Positions 6,157 through 49,351 of a stretch of 56,568 nt of DNA are shown piece by piece (the first letter of the stretch is position 1; the number at the start of each line of letters is the position of its first letter). The stretch lies in the IMG/VR virus record IMGVR_UViG_3300045988_108312. One strand, written 5' to 3'. This DNA is from a virus. Under the pieces are notes generated by a model. It searched no databases, was not told where the DNA came from, and worked only from the letters and a program-made list of their open reading frames with translations. Position numbers and translations under genes: made by a program.

Positions 6157-6849
6157 ATGGCAGAACTTGTAAAGATTGAAAATACAGAAATGGCAATCAA
6201 AGAATATAACGGTATGAGAGTTGTCACTATGAAAGATATTGACAGGGTTCATCATAAAAAATCCGATACGGCAAAGAAGTCATTTCAAAAGCATAAGAGT
6301 CATTTTATACTTGGAACGGATTACTTTGAAATTACAAGAAAAGAGTTAGGGGAACGATATTCCCCCAACGAAAAAATAGTCGGAAATCCCAATATGAAAA
6401 CATATCTCTTTACAGAAAGCGGATATCTCATGATAGTAAAAGTTTTTACGGATGATTTAGCATGGGAAGTACAGCGTCAACTGGTAAACTCTTACTTTGC
6501 GGTCAAGAATCAGATGGAAACAGCAGAACCAAAGATAGAGGATTGCAACTATCATGTCAGCATGACACCTGTACCAAAGACACCTACATGGTATGCAAGG
6601 AATCAGCGCAGGATTGAAAGGATAGTCCAGGCAATACACGGTAAAAAATCACAGTTGTATCATAGAATCCTGTTGTTTGTTGGAGAAGAATACGACCTTG
6701 ATGAAGCCGCTGCTATCTATGAACAGGAAAAGGGATATCCACCAAGATATTCCATGGACATGATTAGTTACTTCCCTGAATTATCAGAGTGCGCAGACAA
6801 ATATTTGGAATGTGCCGAAAAATCCTTAAAGGAAAGTGGAAAATTATAA
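6157..6849 (+). CDS. ORF6N/KilA-N-type DNA-binding protein (phage antirepressor-like)
   Basis: RBS GGGGGA; IKEYNGMRVVTMKDIDRVHHK...HFILGTDYFEI...LFTESGYLMIVKVFTDDLAWEVQRQLVNSYF; paralogue of 40816..41646. Confidence 0.75.
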   Translation: MAELVKIENTEMAIKEYNGMRVVTMKDIDRVHHKKSDTAKKSFQKHKSHFILGTDYFEITRKELGERYSPNEKIVGNPNMKTYLFTESGYLMIVKVFTDDLAWEVQRQLVNSYFAVKNQMETAEPKIEDCNYHVSMTPVPKTPTWYARNQRRIERIVQAIHGKKSQLYHRILLFVGEEYDLDEAAAIYEQEKGYPPRYSMDMISYFPELSECADKYLECAEKSLKESGKL

Positions 6850-6909: not shown

Positions 6910-7233
6910 ATGTATTTTATGGTAAATGGTCAGCTGTGGCAATTAGCTTTTGTTCCTGCCAATAGTCAAGACTTACAGCGCAGTGACGGAGCGTACACAT
7001 TTGGAGTTACAGACAACAACACTAAGACAGTATCAATAGCAAGCGGTATGTCTGCATATATGACAGAACGTGTAATCTGTCATGAACTAACTCATGTCAT
7101 GTGCTTTGAGCATGATATGTCTATACCTATAGATTTGGAAGAACGGTTGTGTAATTTCATGGCTGATTATGGAAAAGAGATAATATATCTGCTAGATGAT
7201 TTGCTGGCAAAGTTGCGTACTAATGCGATTTGA
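6910..7233 (+). CDS. Small HExxH zinc-metallopeptidase-like protein (ImmA/SprT-like size and layout)
   Basis: RBS TAGGAG; VICHELTHVMCFEHD contains HExxH. Confidence 0.6.
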   Translation: MYFMVNGQLWQLAFVPANSQDLQRSDGAYTFGVTDNNTKTVSIASGMSAYMTERVICHELTHVMCFEHDMSIPIDLEERLCNFMADYGKEIIYLLDDLLAKLRTNAI

Positions 7234-7332
7234 GATTGATTTTTGCAAAAAAATTTCAAATTTCCACAGAAAAATGTTGAAAAAAGATGTGTACCTAAAA
7301 ATCCCTAGGAGAAAAAAATATTCTGAAACAAA

Positions 7333-7443
7333 TTTGACCGCCCCTGGGGTACTTTTCTAACTGGGATTTTCAGAACGGTTTTGAAGCAAAATTTTGTTCT
7401 GATTTTCCGCAACATTCGGAAAAATTTTGATGCCCCCTGGGGT
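7333..7443. repeat. Two copies of TTTGA(C/T)(C/G)(G/C)CCCCTGGGGT(A/G), 93 bp apart, each with the palindrome CCCCTGGGG, set among four AAAATTTT/AAATTTT palindromes
   Basis: Copies at 7333-7350 and 7426-7443; AAAATTTT at 7388, 7421, 7480; AAATTTT at 7528. Confidence 0.7.
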
Positions 7444-7944
7444 GATTTACAGCTTGAAAAGTCATTTTAGAAATGCGCCAAAATTTTCAGAGGATTTTAA
7501 GCGGATTTTCTCCAGAAAATGAATCAGAAATTTTAGTGTGCTAAAGTGCCATGATTGAGCCTGTCAGAATGCGATCATGTAAGGGCATGGAAACACTACC
7601 AAATAGCAAGCCACTAAAAGCACCGTAAGCGTCCTGTGCGTATCTGGTGTATAAATCCATGCGCACATAATGCAATCGCTTAGAATCGGTTATAATGCTT
7701 TACAGGAAATGTTTACATAACTATGTTGACTTGATGCAATAGCCATGTGAACGCACAGAATGACCAGATAGCGACAATATAAGACCATGCACAGAATTAC
7801 AGCATAGTACAGTTATAGACAACTGTACGCCTGTTTTATGCTCTTGTCAAGGTACGGTTACTGCATACGGCTACATGAACGTATAACGCACACATAGCCC
7901 TGTACAGTAACATGGAACTGGAAAAAGAGCGGAACAAGTCCACT

Positions 7945-8532
7945 CTAAAAAATATAATCTAATATTGGATAATCACATATAAGTCTGTTTTTATCAAATC
8001 CTCTAAAATAATTAAAATCGTTAGTGCTTAGATTACAACTGTCCTTTTGCATCAGCGAATATTCGTATGCGCTGCATTCTCTATATCCAGAACCAAAACG
8101 ACCAAATTTGACCGCCTGTGCTGTATCTGGAGTGTATACATACGCTTTAAATTTCACCCATTTTATGCGACTAGCAACATCTTTTGTAAGCATAACAGAT
8201 ATGCGCTCTTTTAAAAATAAAGGCGCATAAATGGCTTTTATTTCTTGCGGAGCAACACGATCAACGATAAATTCATCGTAATTTCCCGCGTTGTAATCAT
8301 CTTTGCAAAACTCTACATGCCTTGCGTTTATTTCTTCCCGGATTTCTAACAAAATTAGTCCGTACATTACTAAGCAATTCCGATTTTTAGGCTTAAATAA
8401 GTAAACAACATTAGTCGGATTATTTGCTCTTCTTCCGTCATCCCAGTTATTATTTTTGCACTCGTCCATGGATAGAATGCCTTTTTTTAGTATAGATTCT
8501 AAATCTTTTATATCCACGTTTTTATAATACAT
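7945..8532 (-). CDS. Hypothetical 195-aa protein; the N-terminal ~110 aa resemble a compact DarT/DUF4433-type ADP-ribosyltransferase fold (speculative)
   Basis: ATG 8532 lies 5 nt after GAGGTGG (the track GTG 8541 is inside the RBS); ordered motifs YYKNVDIKDLESILKKGIL / VVYLFKPKNRNCL / DEFIVDRVAPQEIKAIY. Confidence 0.5.
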   Translation of the reverse strand: MYYKNVDIKDLESILKKGILSMDECKNNNWDDGRRANNPTNVVYLFKPKNRNCLVMYGLILLEIREEINARHVEFCKDDYNAGNYDEFIVDRVAPQEIKAIYAPLFLKERISVMLTKDVASRIKWVKFKAYVYTPDTAQAVKFGRFGSGYRECSAYEYSLMQKDSCNLSTNDFNYFRGFDKNRLICDYPILDYIF

Positions 8533-8595
8533 ATTAACCACCTCTTAAAAAATTATATAATAATAGCCTAGTTAATTCTAGGCTATGTTTTAAAA

Positions 8596-8619
8596 AGCAA
8601 GTCGGGGAATCGAACCCCG
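8596..8619 (-). other. tRNA T-arm-like hairpin plus 3'-acceptor-like strand (minus strand: CGGGG-TTCGATT-CCCCG-ACTTGCT); not a complete tRNA
   Basis: Canonical TTCGATT T-loop; no matching 5' acceptor strand, D arm or proper anticodon arm found upstream. Confidence 0.4.
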
Positions 8620-8657
8620 AAAAGACCATGAATAGCAAAGTGCGCATATTGCACCAA

Positions 8658-8918
8658 TTAAATATTTATCTTGTATTCTTTACGACTGCTATAGTCGTAT
8701 TTTGTGCTTAGTTCGCATGCATCCGAATAATATACAGAATATCCGCTGTTTTCTAATTCCTGTATAACACTTGGGTTTATTATATCCGTAAATTTTAAAA
8801 CGCAATACGGATGTAACAATATATTTCTGTTTTTCGGCTTTTCAAACTCTAAGAACTCTTTTATTTTGTTCTTATCTGGCTCTTTGTAGCCTAAACATAT
8901 CACATTGTATCTTTTCAT
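8658..8918 (-). CDS. Hypothetical 86-aa protein (shares the KPKNRN motif with 7945..8532)
   Basis: ATG 8918 lies 8 nt after AAAGGATGG; the track start 9011 lacks an RBS and overlaps the upstream gene. Confidence 0.55.
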   Translation of the reverse strand: MKRYNVICLGYKEPDKNKIKEFLEFEKPKNRNILLHPYCVLKFTDIINPSVIQELENSGYSVYYSDACELSTKYDYSSRKEYKINI

Positions 8919-9001
8919 GCCGTCAACCATCCTTTCATTTATGCCCTGTCTTATCAGTGCAGGTGGGGCAGTTCCTACAGACCGCCTTTTGGCGGTTTCG
9001 A

Positions 9002-9391
9002 CTATTCGCAAATTCTGCGGAAAATGTCTATTGTTAATTCTGCGACAGCTCTTTTTCTGCCTGCTGTATAGCCTTTGCGCTTGCTTTTTAATGCTTTTTC
9101 TGCTTGTTTAAGGTTTCCAACTCCCCAAGATGCCGCTTTATCAAGTTTTTTCCATTCATCCGGTGCAACTTTTACGGCTTTAAGCGTTGTCGTGTTGATT
9201 TCGTAATTGTCTTTGTCTTCCGGGTGCAAATCTTCGCAAACTGGAATATATTCATGCGTTCCCATGTTTTCACCAATATTCCAGATGAAAAATCTAACCG
9301 GGATTTTTTCCACGATTTCAAAAACATCGACTTCCTCGCTCATTGGTTTCTCACTGTAGATTTTTCCATTCTCTATTTTAAATTTTGTCAT
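9002..9391 (-). CDS. Hypothetical 129-aa protein
   Basis: RBS GAGGAAAA upstream of ATG 9391; first gene of the minus-strand island. Confidence 0.65.
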   Translation of the reverse strand: MTKFKIENGKIYSEKPMSEEVDVFEIVEKIPVRFFIWNIGENMGTHEYIPVCEDLHPEDKDNYEINTTTLKAVKVAPDEWKKLDKAASWGVGNLKQAEKALKSKRKGYTAGRKRAVAELTIDIFRRICE

Positions 9392-9442: not shown

Positions 9443-9552
9443 TTAAGCACTAATGTATATTGACAAAATATACAAAATTAAGCACTAATAACATATCAGA
9501 AATTATGCATTTTTATTAAGCACTAAAAAGTTATTGACTATTTAAGCACTAA
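9443..9552. promoter_or_regulatory. Four copies of operator-like box TTAAGCACTAA(T) in the divergent control region
   Basis: Copies at 9443, 9478, 9516, 9542 (spacings 35/38/26 bp); the fourth fills the spacer of the promoter at 9534. Confidence 0.65.
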
Positions 9553-9562
9553 TATATATAAT
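9534..9562 (+). promoter_or_regulatory. Consensus sigma-A promoter with an operator in the spacer
   Basis: TTGACT (9534-39), 17 nt containing TTAAGCACTAAT, TATAAT (9557-62). Confidence 0.65.
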
Positions 9563-9594: not shown

Positions 9595-9792
9595 ATGGCA
9601 GTAACAGAAAATGAGAAAGCACTAAAAAACAGGCAAGCAGTAAAAAAATGTATGGAAAGCAGAGACAGAATAAACATAATATTACCGCAAGGCACAGTAG
9701 ACAGAATAAATGCATATGGATTAAAAACAAGCGCATTTGCGAGACAGTTAATATTAGAAGAACTGGCAAGAATGGACAAAATGAAAAAATAA
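9595..9792 (+). CDS. Ribbon-helix-helix (Arc/CopG-like) regulator
   Basis: RBS AAAGGAGG; DRINIILPQGTVDRINAYGLKTSAFARQLILEEL matches the 'r.s..lPkGtkerI...G.S.N.fi' RHH pattern also seen in 12353..12913. Confidence 0.7.
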   Translation: MAVTENEKALKNRQAVKKCMESRDRINIILPQGTVDRINAYGLKTSAFARQLILEELARMDKMKK

Positions 9793-9798
9793 TTTGAA

Positions 9799-9845
9799 TT
9801 AAGCACTAATTAAGCGTTGACAATTAAGCACTAATATGTTATTGT
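9799..9845 (+). promoter_or_regulatory. Two more TTAAGCACTAAT boxes (9799, 9824; degenerate TTAAGCGTTGA at 9810) overlapping a promoter: TTGACA (9817-22), 17 nt, TATTGT (9840-45)
   Basis: Read directly; the box again occupies the -35/-10 spacer. Confidence 0.55.
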
Positions 9846-9887: not shown

Positions 9888-10091
9888 ATGATAAAAGGAA
9901 AATATAAAACAGACATGGGTTTCATATATGTATACAGCAGCAATACTATATACACCATATCCACCTATGACGGTAACTGGAGTTGCTGTAAGGTTGGAGA
10001 GCGTACAGCAATGGGGCAAATACTGACCCAAGAAGCATACGACCGTTGGGAGTCTGAGTGCTCCAAGGTTGGAGAGTTTGAGTTGAAATAA
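9888..10091 (+). CDS. Hypothetical 67-aa protein
   Basis: RBS GAGAGGAGA. Confidence 0.6.
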   Translation: MIKGKYKTDMGFIYVYSSNTIYTISTYDGNWSCCKVGERTAMGQILTQEAYDRWESECSKVGEFELK

Positions 10092-10112
10092 GAAAGAGAG
10101 AGGAGAATAGAC

Positions 10113-10541
10113 ATGGTAGATTCATTATTTTTAAGAGCAAGAACAAGCGAAGGTAATAAGCTATGGACAAAATGCAAAGAAGCAGCTCCTGTAAACATTT
10201 TTAAACTTTTTAAAGAGTTTAACACAGAAAATGGTTTTAGTGGCTGGTTTGGTGACCCTGTAGCAGATGATTTCAAGCCGATTGATTCATACACAGATGT
10301 TCGCCATTTCAGAATAGATGAATCCTTTTTCTTCACTGACGAAGTTGTAAAAAAGGAAGGCTCGGAAGTGTTGGCTATTTCGTCGCATCCGTTTAAAATA
10401 ATCGGATGCATAACAGAGTACAGAAAATCCGTAGAGGGTGAGTGGGGACACACATTTTCGCACAATGTAAAACTGGAAAGACAAGAAAAAGATAAGGACG
10501 GCATATACAGAACTGTAGAAACGATAATCAAGGAGGAGTAG
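10113..10541 (+). CDS. Hypothetical 142-aa protein
   Basis: RBS GAGAGGAGA; tightly packed operon. Confidence 0.7.
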   Translation: MVDSLFLRARTSEGNKLWTKCKEAAPVNIFKLFKEFNTENGFSGWFGDPVADDFKPIDSYTDVRHFRIDESFFFTDEVVKKEGSEVLAISSHPFKIIGCITEYRKSVEGEWGHTFSHNVKLERQEKDKDGIYRTVETIIKEE

Positions 10542-10543
10542 CA

Positions 10544-10861
10544 TTGTTAGAGCAGTATGGAAACTATTACAAGTTATTTAAAGGGCATGGAACAACGCCG
10601 CAGAAAATAACAGTAGTGGAGATAGACGGCGAAAATGTCACTTTTATTATGGGGCATCACAGCAAAGATGAGCTTTTGAGCCGTGGCGATACGGTAGACG
10701 AAGCAATAAGAAACATGTGCCTTGTTAAAAACAAGTGCAATGCAAACAAAATTCTGCGTAAAGCCACAAAAAAGCAAATTGAAGCTTTGCATAAGGATGA
10801 GAAGAGAATAAAAAGAATGATCGAGAAAATGGACAAAGAAAAACAGGAGGGATTAAAATGA
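10544..10861 (+). CDS. Hypothetical 105-aa protein with a Lys-rich C-terminus
   Basis: TTG start 5 nt after AAGGAGGAG. Confidence 0.65.
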   Translation: MLEQYGNYYKLFKGHGTTPQKITVVEIDGENVTFIMGHHSKDELLSRGDTVDEAIRNMCLVKNKCNANKILRKATKKQIEALHKDEKRIKRMIEKMDKEKQEGLK

Positions 10862-11202
10862 ATAAAGTAGTAGAAAAGGCAATGCAGTTAATCGAGGAGA
10901 GCGATCGTACAGATACAACTATCCCAGATTTAGAGGTTGGGGATGTTGTAAGACTTTGGGATGTCTGGGATGGTGAAAGTGAAACAGGCATAGACCCATA
11001 TAATTACCATGTCGGAGAAGAGTATAGTAGCTCTTACATGGTAAACGAAATGGACGGCATTAACTACTTGTTTAAAATCGTAGAATGCAGTGAAAAGGTA
11101 GAACCAGAAATTGGAAAATACGAAGAATATACAAATTTGGACGAAGCCGCAGAAGCATTAAAAGATGTTGTTGTGGAGATAACAGATATATACATGATTT
11201 AA
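10858..11202 (+). CDS. Hypothetical, strongly acidic 114-aa protein
   Basis: RBS CAGGAGGGA; ATGA overlap with the upstream gene; D/E-rich throughout. Confidence 0.7.
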   Translation: MNKVVEKAMQLIEESDRTDTTIPDLEVGDVVRLWDVWDGESETGIDPYNYHVGEEYSSSYMVNEMDGINYLFKIVECSEKVEPEIGKYEEYTNLDEAAEALKDVVVEITDIYMI

Positions 11203-48011: not shown

Positions 48012-48662
48012 ATGAGTGAAAAATATTTGAGTATCATAACAAATTTTGGATGCCACGGGAAATGCCCATATTGCATTACCAAAACAAACAATATAGCAGT
48101 TCCCAAAACTACTATTGATGGATTGAAAAATTTGTATGGATATTTGCATCCTGTAAAGAAATACAATATAGTTTCTGTTTCTGGCGGCGGCGACCCTTTA
48201 TTCCAATATGAAAAAAACGTTGAGTGGTACAGAACTTTATTTAAGATTTTGGACGGTATTCCACTTGAAATGCATACAAGCTACATGACAGATGAAACTA
48301 CATTCCCTTTTTATGATTGCAAAAGAGTCGTATATCATCCGAACAGTTTTTCACAGTTACAGCATATTCACAGGACTGGTAACGAAAAGGTTAGAGTAGT
48401 CTATGTAGTAACAGAAGACTTTACGTTTGAAACGATAATGAACATAGCCTTGTTTGTGTCACAAAGCAAAGATATTGACGAATTGAGTTTTAGACAACTC
48501 GTAAAACCAGATTATGAGACTACAGATTACTGGCAAGATTTTCTTGAATTAGGTCACGAGAAACTCTGGTATTACATCAAACAGTGCGATTACAACGACT
48601 ATTATGCGGAGAATAAAATCTATTATCGGTTTTCAGATATTGGGAAAGAGGTTGAATCATGA
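48012..48662 (+). CDS. Small radical-SAM enzyme (orphan)
   Basis: CHGKCPYC = Cx3Cx2C cluster motif at residues 14-21; VSVSGGGDPL = SAM-binding GGE/D-P motif. Confidence 0.7.
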   Translation: MSEKYLSIITNFGCHGKCPYCITKTNNIAVPKTTIDGLKNLYGYLHPVKKYNIVSVSGGGDPLFQYEKNVEWYRTLFKILDGIPLEMHTSYMTDETTFPFYDCKRVVYHPNSFSQLQHIHRTGNEKVRVVYVVTEDFTFETIMNIALFVSQSKDIDELSFRQLVKPDYETTDYWQDFLELGHEKLWYYIKQCDYNDYYAENKIYYRFSDIGKEVES

Positions 48663-49351
48663 GATTACGCTGTCTAGCATCAGGCAGTAGCGGTAACTGC
48701 TACATACTAACAAATTCCAACTGTAAATCCCTTATTCTTGACTCTGGTGTATTGATTATGGATATCAAGAGAGGACTGGACTGGAACATCAGAAATGTGG
48801 TTGGGTGTGTGGTTTCACACATCCATAAAGACCACAGCAAAAGCGCAGACGCAATAGAAAAAATAGGTATTCCAGTATGGAAACCATACGAAGAAGAAAA
48901 TCCGAAGATGCAGAAATACGACAGTTTCACAATCCAGTGTTTCCAGTTGCCACATAACGGAACTACCAATTACGGATTTTACATCAAGGCAGACGGACAG
49001 AAGCTATTATACATGACAGACATGGAGTATTGTCCTTACAGTTTTAGGAAACAGGCGGTAGATCACATGCTGATTGAGTGCAACTACATAGCGGATATGG
49101 TGGACAGGGATATCCCAAATTACGAACATAAGATTCTAGGGCATTGCGAATTGGAAACTTGCAAAGGTATTGTAGAAACCAATAAGTCAGATGCATTGCA
49201 GAACGTCATATTGTGCCACACAGCGAAAGAAACTTGCGATAAGGATAGAATTATTGAAGAGATTCGTAAAATCGTTCCTAGTGCAAATGTGAGCGTTGCA
49301 CAGGGCGGTATGGAATGGGAACTTAGAAATGCGGATGAATGTCCGTTTTAG
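48659..49351 (+). CDS. Metallo-beta-lactamase-fold hydrolase (putative recombination exonuclease)
   Basis: SGSSGNCYIL...LDSG...VVSHIHKDH (HxHxDH). Confidence 0.8.
   Translation: MRLRCLASGSSGNCYILTNSNCKSLILDSGVLIMDIKRGLDWNIRNVVGCVVSHIHKDHSKSADAIEKIGIPVWKPYEEENPKMQKYDSFTIQCFQLPHNGTTNYGFYIKADGQKLLYMTDMEYCPYSFRKQAVDHMLIECNYIADMVDRDIPNYEHKILGHCELETCKGIVETNKSDALQNVILCHTAKETCDKDRIIEEIRKIVPSANVSVAQGGMEWELRNADECPF

Follow-up and report, generated by a model that had tools for sequence, protein, structure and literature searches.

What does the last gene of a short minus-strand island in a gut phage do, and does it act together with the two genes ahead of it? We address this question for IMG/VR virus record IMGVR_UViG_3300045988_108312. 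The whole stretch of DNA analyzed, 56,568 nucleotides (nt) and hereafter the window, is a 56.6-kb temperate phage genome; the island spans 7945-9391 and consists of three successive open reading frames (ORFs), all on the minus strand in the ORF list, which we call genes A, B, and C. The 195-amino-acid (aa) protein of gene C very probably has the nicotinamide adenine dinucleotide (NAD)-using ADP-ribosyltransferase (ART) fold of the DarT/Tpt1 kind, and gene C itself is a stand-alone, swappable cargo cassette of a hypervariable island in a gut Clostridia prophage. A model in which the three genes work as one system is contradicted by comparative data.

Work on conflict between phages and bacteria turns more and more to ADP-ribosylation of nucleic acids and immune proteins, with DarTG, CmdTAC, and AcrIF11 as examples. 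Gene C stands for a family of minimal ARTs associated with phages, within a well-known superfamily, whose phage members are already recognized as diverse (PMC9503650). The family carries no annotation in Pfam, NCBIfam, PHROGs, or PADLOC, and it illustrates how small a DarT/Tpt1-type ART can get. It is unusual in placing lysine at the canonical histidine position and in having a separate domain in place of the ADP-ribosylating turn-turn (ARTT) loop. Once its target is found, gene C would add either a new enzymatic anti-defense mechanism or a new antitoxin-free toxin.

Fold of the gene C protein

The following features of the island, all on the minus strand, are used throughout:

9002-9391, minus: gene A, 129 aa, first gene of the island
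8658-8918, minus: gene B, 86 aa from ATG, or 117 aa if the start is the TTG at 9011
8538-8546, minus: gene C Shine-Dalgarno sequence AAGAGGTGG, 5 nt ahead of the ATG, a good ribosome-binding site
7945-8532, minus: gene C, 195 aa, ATG at 8532, coordinates including the stop codon
8218-8532, minus: predicted N-terminal ART-fold domain, residues 1-105, from model secondary structure and hhalign
7948-8217, minus: C-terminal domain, residues 106-195, from conservation and a separate AlphaFold2 model
8521-8523 (K4), 8428-8430 (R35), 8401-8403 (Y44), 8272-8274 (E87), minus: key codons of gene C

The same set of 129, 86, and 195 aa is called on 11 public contigs with identical gene C, so the three-gene minus-strand island described in an earlier sequence-only reading of this DNA stands as a set of ORFs. 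That reading had also picked out three ART-like landmarks in the 195-aa protein; all are present and fall on family-invariant residues. The predicted ART domain would comprise beta1 (YYKNV), alpha1 (KDLESILKKG), beta2 (VVYLFK), beta3 (LILLE), a D79-x-N/H81 segment, beta5 (YDEFIV), and beta6 (IKAIYAP).

A template-free AlphaFold2 model of gene C, built from 21 input sequences, has a predicted local distance difference test score (pLDDT) of 81 and a predicted template modeling score of 0.79, and its residues 1-104 run beta-alpha-beta-beta-beta-beta-beta. In a Foldseek search of the PDB, the 15 best matches are exclusively Tpt1/KptA RNA 2'-phosphotransferases or DarT (probability 0.63-0.99), the DarT entries being E. 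coli DarT1 and a Thermosipho DarT-DarG fusion. This is the outcome that the sequence-only reading had proposed looking for in a predicted structure. The alignments extend over ~113-118 columns for Tpt1 and ~190 columns, at high root-mean-square deviation, for DarT. Against BFVD, two uncharacterized homologs lead (E 1e-12 and 3e-11); the weak matches (E ~1e-2) are mostly uncharacterized but include a protein annotated as DarT and a PARP catalytic domain. The C-terminal domain, modeled alone, reaches a pLDDT of 74, and a fold search with this model against the PDB gives no match with a probability above 0.08; the C-terminal domain of ~85 aa described earlier is upheld, as a separate domain of ~90 residues.

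Profile-profile alignment points the same way. With DarT and Tpt1 profiles rebuilt from PDB chains and viral homologs, hhalign of the N-terminal domain of the gene C family returns P=3e-4 for DarT and P=2e-4 for Tpt1. At 29.6 and 29.9, the scores exceed the maxima of 60 column shuffles (17.8 and 20.3) and the reversed-profile controls (11.5 and 17.2), and the motif resemblance noted earlier thus persists under proper alignment. The signal is dominated by beta1-alpha1, where LYKNVDIxDLxSILxxGIL faces IYHITHIDNLKGILRMGKL. Cutting the ~36-residue ARTT region out of DarT yields an alignment that stays collinear over all six strands, beta1 through beta6, and the tentative pairings are K4/H13, D10/N19, R35/R51, D79-x-N/H81 with D117-x-H119, and E87/E160. 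R35 and E87 of gene C would thereby lie opposite the catalytic R51 and E160 of DarT, in an alignment of low confidence; the NAD-binding and catalytic residues of DarT that enter these pairings are those given in PMC9967889. Removal of the ARTT region leaves the score unraised, and therefore the residue pairings are tentative and the statistics favor neither a DarT-specific nor a Tpt1-specific relationship. We assign the ART fold, at the strength stated above, because the structural matches and the controlled profile-profile alignment agree.

Conservation across the family

The family is of modest size, with 27 homologs in a collection clustered at 90% identity and ~235 representatives at 50% identity. 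Conservation was counted in an alignment of 75 family sequences. Y44, Y85, E87, G18, I14, and I98 are invariant (75/75); R35, N38, W30, and D79 are each kept in at least 73 of the 75; and N5 and D7 are kept at 90% or more.

The catalytic triad positions of ARTs are H or R in beta1, Y or S in beta2, and E, D, or Q in beta5. Gene C fills them with K or H at position 4, Y44, and E87, the lysine being non-canonical. The suggestion that tyrosine replaces histidine in the first motif arose from an error of register: it is Lys4 that occupies the ART histidine position, which holds lysine in 60 and histidine in 10 of the aligned sequences. Since K/H4, R35, Y44, D79, and E87 are kept across the family, an ART-like catalytic set is conserved, and the pattern fits an active enzyme as far as residues alone can indicate. 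Between gene C and its copy in L012, the ratio of nonsynonymous to synonymous substitution rates is 0.38, a value drawn from only 13 differences. The C-terminal residues 106-195 carry a conserved motif, F-N-[YF]-F-R177-G ... D187 ... Y193, and are mildly basic (isoelectric point 8.8). A Pfam search of fused or longer homologs recovers a single helix-turn-helix (HTH) fusion and nothing else, and the 464-aa fusion P0034 finds nothing in the PDB.

Relation to known ADP-ribosyltransferases

DarT (PF14487/DUF4433) is the toxin of DarTG, an ADP-ribosyltransferase acting on bases of single-stranded DNA and modifying thymidine or guanosine. Gene C resembles it in its predicted ART fold, with DarT1 and DarT-DarG among the top structural matches; in a very similar beta1-alpha1, [LI]Y[HK]xxxIx[ND]LxSILxxGxL; in candidate equivalents of R51, D117/H119, and E160; and in being encoded, as DarT is, by mobile elements that take part in phage conflict. 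The differences are considerable. The gene C core takes ~105 residues, whereas that of DarT takes ~200, and the ARTT loop, ~38 residues in DarT, is reduced to ~5 between D79-x-N81 and Y85-x-E87; the tighter spacing remarked on earlier is thereby borne out. Most family members have lysine at beta1 where DarT has histidine, and there is no equivalent of M78. Gene C adds a C-terminal domain that matches no fold, and no significant match to the DarT hidden Markov model is found: the window protein is not matched by the Pfam DarT model, whose best hit, E=0.064, is reached in 2 of the 75 family members. There is likewise no DarG macrodomain or NADAR partner; no gene of the phage has a Macro or NADAR Pfam match on record, as the sequence-only reading had supposed for the macrodomain, and the immediate neighbors of the homologs are other proteins. 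Membership in the DarT family is therefore not supported: of the DarT-like candidate proposed earlier, the ART fold of the DarT/Tpt1 kind survives and the family assignment, as Pfam defines it, does not.

Tpt1/KptA shares a similarly compact ART core, provides the best Foldseek match (probability 0.99), and aligns collinearly from beta1 to beta6. In contrast to Tpt1/KptA, gene C begins directly at ART beta1 without an N-terminal RNA-binding domain, has tyrosine and glutamate where Tpt1 has histidine and a hydrophobic residue, lacks a Pfam match, and reverses the domain order by placing its extra domain at the C terminus. Membership in the Tpt1 family fails as well.

Two further groups offer functional parallels. 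AcrIF11 is an ART of phages and plasmids that ADP-ribosylates Cas8f and inactivates Cascade (PMC12421852). Like AcrIF11, gene C is a small solitary ART, by its predicted fold, carried as phage accessory cargo; some homologs precede a small DNA-binding regulator gene, as in operons of anti-CRISPR (acr) and anti-CRISPR-associated (aca) genes, and a Cas8c fragment occupies gene C's island slot in sibling phages. The two proteins differ in that no similarity of sequence or structure is detectable, AcrIF11 being absent from the best 50 of 140 Foldseek PDB matches (E <= 10). The T4 proteins Alt, ModA, and ModB are phage ARTs directed against host macromolecules, and they have no antitoxin (PMC9503650); gene C is, similarly, a phage-encoded candidate ART without an antitoxin partner. 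The T4 enzymes are members of the R-S-E clade with protein targets, and ModB attaches RNA too; the gene C family, by contrast, is of the H-Y-E, DarT-Tpt1 type, and its members come mostly from siphovirus-like temperate phages, or prophages, of Firmicutes.

A swappable cassette in a hypervariable island

The three genes of the island have very different distributions. Gene A, a conserved gene of the phage backbone, has 1143 homologous clusters, many of them 78-99% identical, on phage contigs of 50-75 kb; it always heads the island in sibling phages, where the genes behind it are wholly different, and most gene A clusters occur without gene C. A homolog is present in the lytic Streptococcus phage MS1, and gene A has no match in Pfam, PHROGs, NCBIfam, or PADLOC. 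Gene B is an ORFan, with a single 99%-identical cluster among 5.8 billion proteins; it is replaced by another gene in L001 and missing from L012, and it too is without a Pfam, PHROG, or NCBIfam match. Neither gene B nor the ribbon-helix-helix (RHH)-like protein encoded upstream of the island matches PADLOC.

Gene C moves on its own. It is 96-97% identical in L012, a 61-kb phage that lacks gene A, gene B, and the RHH-like gene, and in a pairwise DNA comparison the conserved cassette is an 820-bp block, 7808-8628, 97% identical to L012. Three conserved junctions frame the variable cargo, and the island's cassettes are exchanged between such junction hairpins:

8923-9006, minus: junction J1, after gene A and ahead of the variable cargo; 86-97% identical in L001, L012, L158, L159, L161, and L165
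8593-8623, minus: junction J2, a GC-rich hairpin, TCGGGGTTCGATTCCCCGA, followed by a T-run; terminator-like
7808-7927, minus: junction J3, the distal island boundary just downstream of gene C

J2 recurs as a 31-bp match (93.5%) in L158, L159, L161, and L165, between the cargo genes of those siblings. J3 is 92.5% identical in L159 and L161, behind a different last cargo gene, and 97% identical in L012. Together with a palindrome at 8563-8586, J2 separates gene B from gene C; both are terminator-like. The junctions could act as hot spots of recombination, or else all cassettes could share them as attenuators of transcription. A tRNA or attachment-site remnant was considered at 8590-8625, which contains the T-arm-like GGGGTTCGATTCCCC; ARAGORN and Rfam were both negative, and the stretch is a conserved hairpin junction instead.

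The hexapeptide KPKNRN had been taken as a link between genes B and C. It is present in both, yet it does not exceed chance: a common 6-mer turns up in 6 of the window's 4095 ORF pairs, an unrelated gene has a second one, EEINAR, in common with gene C, and KPKNRN is not conserved across the gene C family. Shuffling gives p~0.001 for this single pair, with ~90 adjacent pairs open to choice. We also rejected the idea that gene B is an ART-domain paralog that has degenerated; BLASTP between the two gives E=0.018, and the hexapeptide stands at chance level.

The cargo of sibling islands offers a further view of the slot. A PHROG scan of 22 sibling cargo proteins finds only families without known function. 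In the sibling phages L158 (5209-5901), L160, and L162, the slot of gene C holds a 230-aa protein whose match to Cas8c/Csd1 (PF09709, E=7.6e-20) covers the N-terminal 197 positions of that family. Homologs of Cas8b fragments are proven anti-CRISPRs (the AcrIB4 precedent), and the Cas8c fragment is, by analogy, a candidate subunit-mimic anti-CRISPR against type I-C systems. As a cassette island with junction hairpins, the locus is a place to mine for more counter-defense genes in Clostridia phages, and it may inform as much as gene C itself.

Genomic neighborhoods of gene C homologs

We surveyed 59 loci, which form 16 lineages at 70% identity; no neighbor of gene C is constant across them. The family is almost confined to phages, prophages, and one integrative element of gut and oral Firmicutes, with relatives in genomes of Christensenella, Lachnospiraceae, Clostridiales, and Peptostreptococcus and also in Streptococcus prophages.

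In the largest lineage (28 loci on phage contigs of 70-180 kb), the homolog stands alone within arrays of small genes on the same strand, and these genes differ between phages. Elsewhere, antitoxin-type genes come next: a HicB/Arc gene overlapping the stop codon in L002, MazE/AbrB in L006, and RelB in L038. In seven temperate phages of ~37 kb, the next gene encodes a 66-aa RHH-like protein and overlaps the gene C homolog by 19 nt; in L045 and L054 at least, it is closely followed by a gene for a large serine recombinase. Megablast gave no match that would point to a host of the ~37-kb phages. L008 carries an RHH-like protein 45% identical to that of the window. A small DNA-binding gene right after a variable effector is the classic acr-aca layout. 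This layout fits as well, and therefore the RHH-like and AbrB neighbors do not separate a toxin from a counter-defense role.

Two further loci stand out. In L009 (Peptostreptococcus), the second gene upstream of the homolog is ArdA-like. In L004 (2231-9610), a Christensenella-associated contig, the homolog lies between an RNA-repair gene and an NAD-salvage set. The former encodes a 732-aa fusion of kinase, metallophosphoesterase, and T4-Rnl1-type RNA ligase (Pnkp/Rnl); the latter comprises isochorismatase/PncA-like, phosphoribosyl pyrophosphate synthetase-like (Prs), and Nampt genes. Taken together, the arrangement looks like a block for counter-defense, and tblastn with these neighbors against all loci and the window finds no second occurrence.

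Proposed role and alternatives

The explanation we favor, and to which we give an even chance, is that gene C is a single-gene cassette encoding a compact ART, nearest the DarT and Tpt1/KptA branch, that serves as a phage conflict effector on a target in the host or a competitor. Residues 1-105 would bind NAD+ through beta1-alpha1 (K/H4, N5, D7, D10, and G18), with nicotinamide stacked by Y44; E87, probably with R35, would cleave the nicotinamide-ribose bond and transfer ADP-ribose. The C-terminal domain would select or present the target, standing in for the long ARTT loop of DarT, and the acceptor of ADP-ribose would be a macromolecule of the host or of a competitor: a defense protein or a nucleic acid. 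The role would be counter-defense or host manipulation, like that of AcrIF11 or T4 Alt/Mod. Counter-defense is favored slightly over a toxin or abortive-infection role: 12 of the 16 lineages have no fixed antidote, which is unexpected for a DarT-grade toxin, and an outward-directed effector is therefore slightly favored over a self-poisoning toxin. The cassette island with its conserved junctions, the Cas8c fragment in the same slot, and the ArdA and NAD-salvage neighbors elsewhere are acr-like features that may point the same way. A bolder version holds that the family, with its K/H-Y-E site and new recognition domain, is a new group of minimal ARTs deployed as an enzymatic counter-defense weapon of temperate Firmicute phages, its gene swapped as a cassette between the hairpin junctions of an anti-defense island that also carries Cas8c-fragment anti-CRISPRs; this is possible but doubtful, and the target could then be Cascade or another immune component, or an immune signaling nucleic acid.

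Several observations weigh against the effector explanation. The Foldseek E-values against the PDB are only ~0.03, at template modeling scores of ~0.3-0.4; because these values are modest, the fold call rests on consistency and not on one strong match. Gene C finds nothing significant in Pfam, PHROGs, PADLOC (2023), or NCBIfam, and the family profile matches no PDB sequence. Past beta1-alpha1 the residue pairings belong to a low-confidence alignment, in which Y44 falls one position off DarT Y71; lysine at the canonical His/Arg position is unusual, which leaves catalysis putative. Two terminator-like hairpins stand ahead of gene C, for which no convincing promoter of its own was found. In L001, a 60-kb relative, gene C is cut to 126 aa and its C-terminal domain is gone (10001-11070); the cause is an oppositely oriented 230-aa gene resembling an insertion-sequence transposase, and gene C, disrupted in this manner, is therefore dispensable. 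In 4 of the 16 lineages, the next gene encodes a small antitoxin-type DNA binder, and the homolog of Streptococcus phage Javan14, flanked by lysin and paratox, has an Abi gene next to it; such contexts look toxin-like or defensive. The proposed role is, finally, guilt by association from few loci.

The toxin-like contexts lead to the alternative in which gene C is the toxin of a prophage-expressed, DarT-like toxin-antitoxin (TA) or abortive-infection module that arrests growth upon infection by ADP-ribosylating DNA or RNA, its antitoxin being a small DNA-binding protein, here the RHH-like protein or an unrecognized factor. We consider this unlikely, though by no means far-fetched. An antitoxin-type gene lies next downstream, often overlapping, in several independent lineages (L002, L006, L038, the ~37-kb phages, and L008); the toxin-first order of darTG is matched; homologs occupy moron positions, with the lysis genes on one side and the integrase or attachment site on the other, and with the Abi gene beside the Javan14 homolog; and the two hairpins could hold expression down. 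However, the lineages without such a neighbor include the 28-locus large-phage group; L012, where gene C is 96% identical, has no RHH-like gene within 6 kb; and the RHH-like gene of the window belongs to the phage backbone, present with or without gene C. The small partners, at 58-67 aa, amount to barely a DNA-binding domain and would fit an aca-type regulator equally, PADLOC gives no match, and tblastn finds no copies of gene C on plasmids. A co-inherited adjacent antitoxin, by which type II TA systems are recognized, is missing: no gene lies downstream of gene C here, and gene C is inherited independently of gene A, gene B, and the RHH-like gene. The extension of this idea to genes A, B, and C as one new three-component TA, abortive-infection, or takeover system, as the sequence-only reading had suggested, deserves almost no credence. 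Its appeal lies in adjacency, a common strand, divergence from a regulator with an operator array, and the shared hexapeptide; against it, gene A spans >1000 clusters, gene C 27, and gene B one, siblings keep gene A with entirely different cargo, gene C is found without gene A and gene B, terminator-like hairpins lie between genes B and C, and the hexapeptide is at chance level.

The remaining alternatives concern chemistry. Gene C might retain the ART fold without transferring ADP-ribose, as an NADase or NAD+ phosphorylase like RES/MbcT or as a non-catalytic binder of NAD or of signals derived from ADP-ribose, a reading we hold to be improbable. The replacement of the canonical beta1 His-Gly by Lys or Asn would accommodate it, as would the NAD-salvage neighbors in L004, which fit an NAD+ consumer too, and inactive PARPs and the NAD+ degraders with a RES domain are examples of ART folds whose triad is altered (PMC9503650, PMC6436930). 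The invariant Tyr-Glu pair and the conserved Arg35 and Asp79 are, on the other hand, what a DarT-type transferase needs, and the presence of a further conserved domain suggests that a macromolecule is recognized. More improbable still is a divergent Tpt1/KptA-type RNA repair enzyme that would remove 2'-phosphates or cap 5'-phosphates at the expense of NAD+, on RNA cut by host anticodon nucleases. Tpt1 is the best structural match, its hhalign result equals that of DarT, and the L004 homolog lies downstream of the kinase-phosphoesterase-RNA-ligase fusion and adjoins NAD-salvage genes; KptA beside RNA ligases is known in phages (PMC9503650). Yet such a context occurs at 1 of ~60 loci, no RNA ligase is recorded for the phage of the window, the Pfam model PTS_2-RNA (PF01885) is not matched, and the motif is K/H-Y-E instead of H-H-h. 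The N-terminal winged-helix domain, which in Tpt1 bears three of the four catalytic Arg-His-Arg-Arg residues, is absent from gene C, and the invariant glutamate is typical of transferases acting on non-phosphate nucleophiles.

Regulatory sequences around the island

The upstream flank of the island and the leader of gene C contain the following elements:

9443-9552, plus: four exact TTAAGCACTAA repeats, overlapping divergent promoter-like sites (minus 9459-9431, plus 9534-9562)
9799-9834, plus: two further TTAAGCACTAA repeats, overlapping the next promoter-like site (9817-9845)
9595-9792, plus: 65-aa probable RHH regulator, phrog_31631
8563-8586, minus: perfect 9-bp palindrome, ATAGCCTAG-6-CTAGGCTAT, with a U-rich tract behind it, shortly ahead of the ribosome-binding site of gene C

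The six exact TTAAGCACTAA copies thus lie on either side of the 65-aa gene and overlap three promoter-like sites in all; this copy number is reached in 0 of 100 shuffles. Of the RHH regulator and operator array described before, the array is thereby upheld. The RHH label is plausible from the sequence pattern, and searches of Pfam, NCBIfam, and the PDB do not confirm the fold; in a PHROG scan, the protein falls in phrog_31631, a family without assigned function (E=2.7e-21). The gene belongs to the backbone and is kept in siblings without gene C, and an XRE-HTH gene stands in for it in L012 and L003. A seventh TTAAGCACTAA copy with one mismatch, CTAAGCACTAA, lies at 8021-8031 on the minus strand within the 3' part of gene C and may be due to chance.

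The palindrome at 8563-8586 appears terminator-like or operator-like and falls within the gene C cassette (the 7808-8628 block). A sigma-70 promoter for gene C was also considered; the only TATAAT (8552-8557) would initiate within the Shine-Dalgarno sequence, and we judged it unconvincing. Downstream of gene C, ~700 bp (7233-7945) contain no credible ORF and include direct repeats with a CCCCTGGGG core, e.g., 7327-7355 and 7420-7448. Within this region, 7213-7549 is 86-95% conserved among sibling phages and 7550-7807 occurs only in this phage; the non-ORF stretch could contain a group of binding sites or give rise to a non-coding RNA.

The phage and its integration site

The temperate character of the phage shows in a large serine recombinase, encoded at 653-2056, and a CI-like HTH gene near 39.7-40.1 kb. 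A megablast search of the region against GenBank phages finds no match. On contigs of 82-93 kb, the prophage adjoins ftsZ-spoIIGA-sigE of a Clostridia-type chromosome. In L170 (16381-16746, minus), the sigG ORF that follows these genes ends in '...KFSTYAVPMAWG' at about codon 100, exactly at the prophage end. The phage would, on this evidence, be a sigG-splitting element with a large serine recombinase, integrated inside a sporulation sigma-factor gene, and the phage attachment site (attP) of the window is expected between 2057 and 2482. In this it recalls the skin element, which interrupts sigK, except that sigG is a forespore-specific gene.

Two other genes of the phage merit mention. A 230-aa early-region protein (48659-49351) has only faint Pfam matches, to Anti-Pycsar Apyc1 and the metallo-beta-lactamase fold, and could be a cyclic-nucleotide-degrading anti-defense enzyme. 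At the island boundary in all siblings lies a gene for a 107-aa protein (6910-7233 in the window) with an HExxH motif (VICHELTHV) and no Pfam match; it adjoins an ORF6N antirepressor-type gene (6157-6849), and its product could be an ImmA/IrrE-like metallopeptidase.

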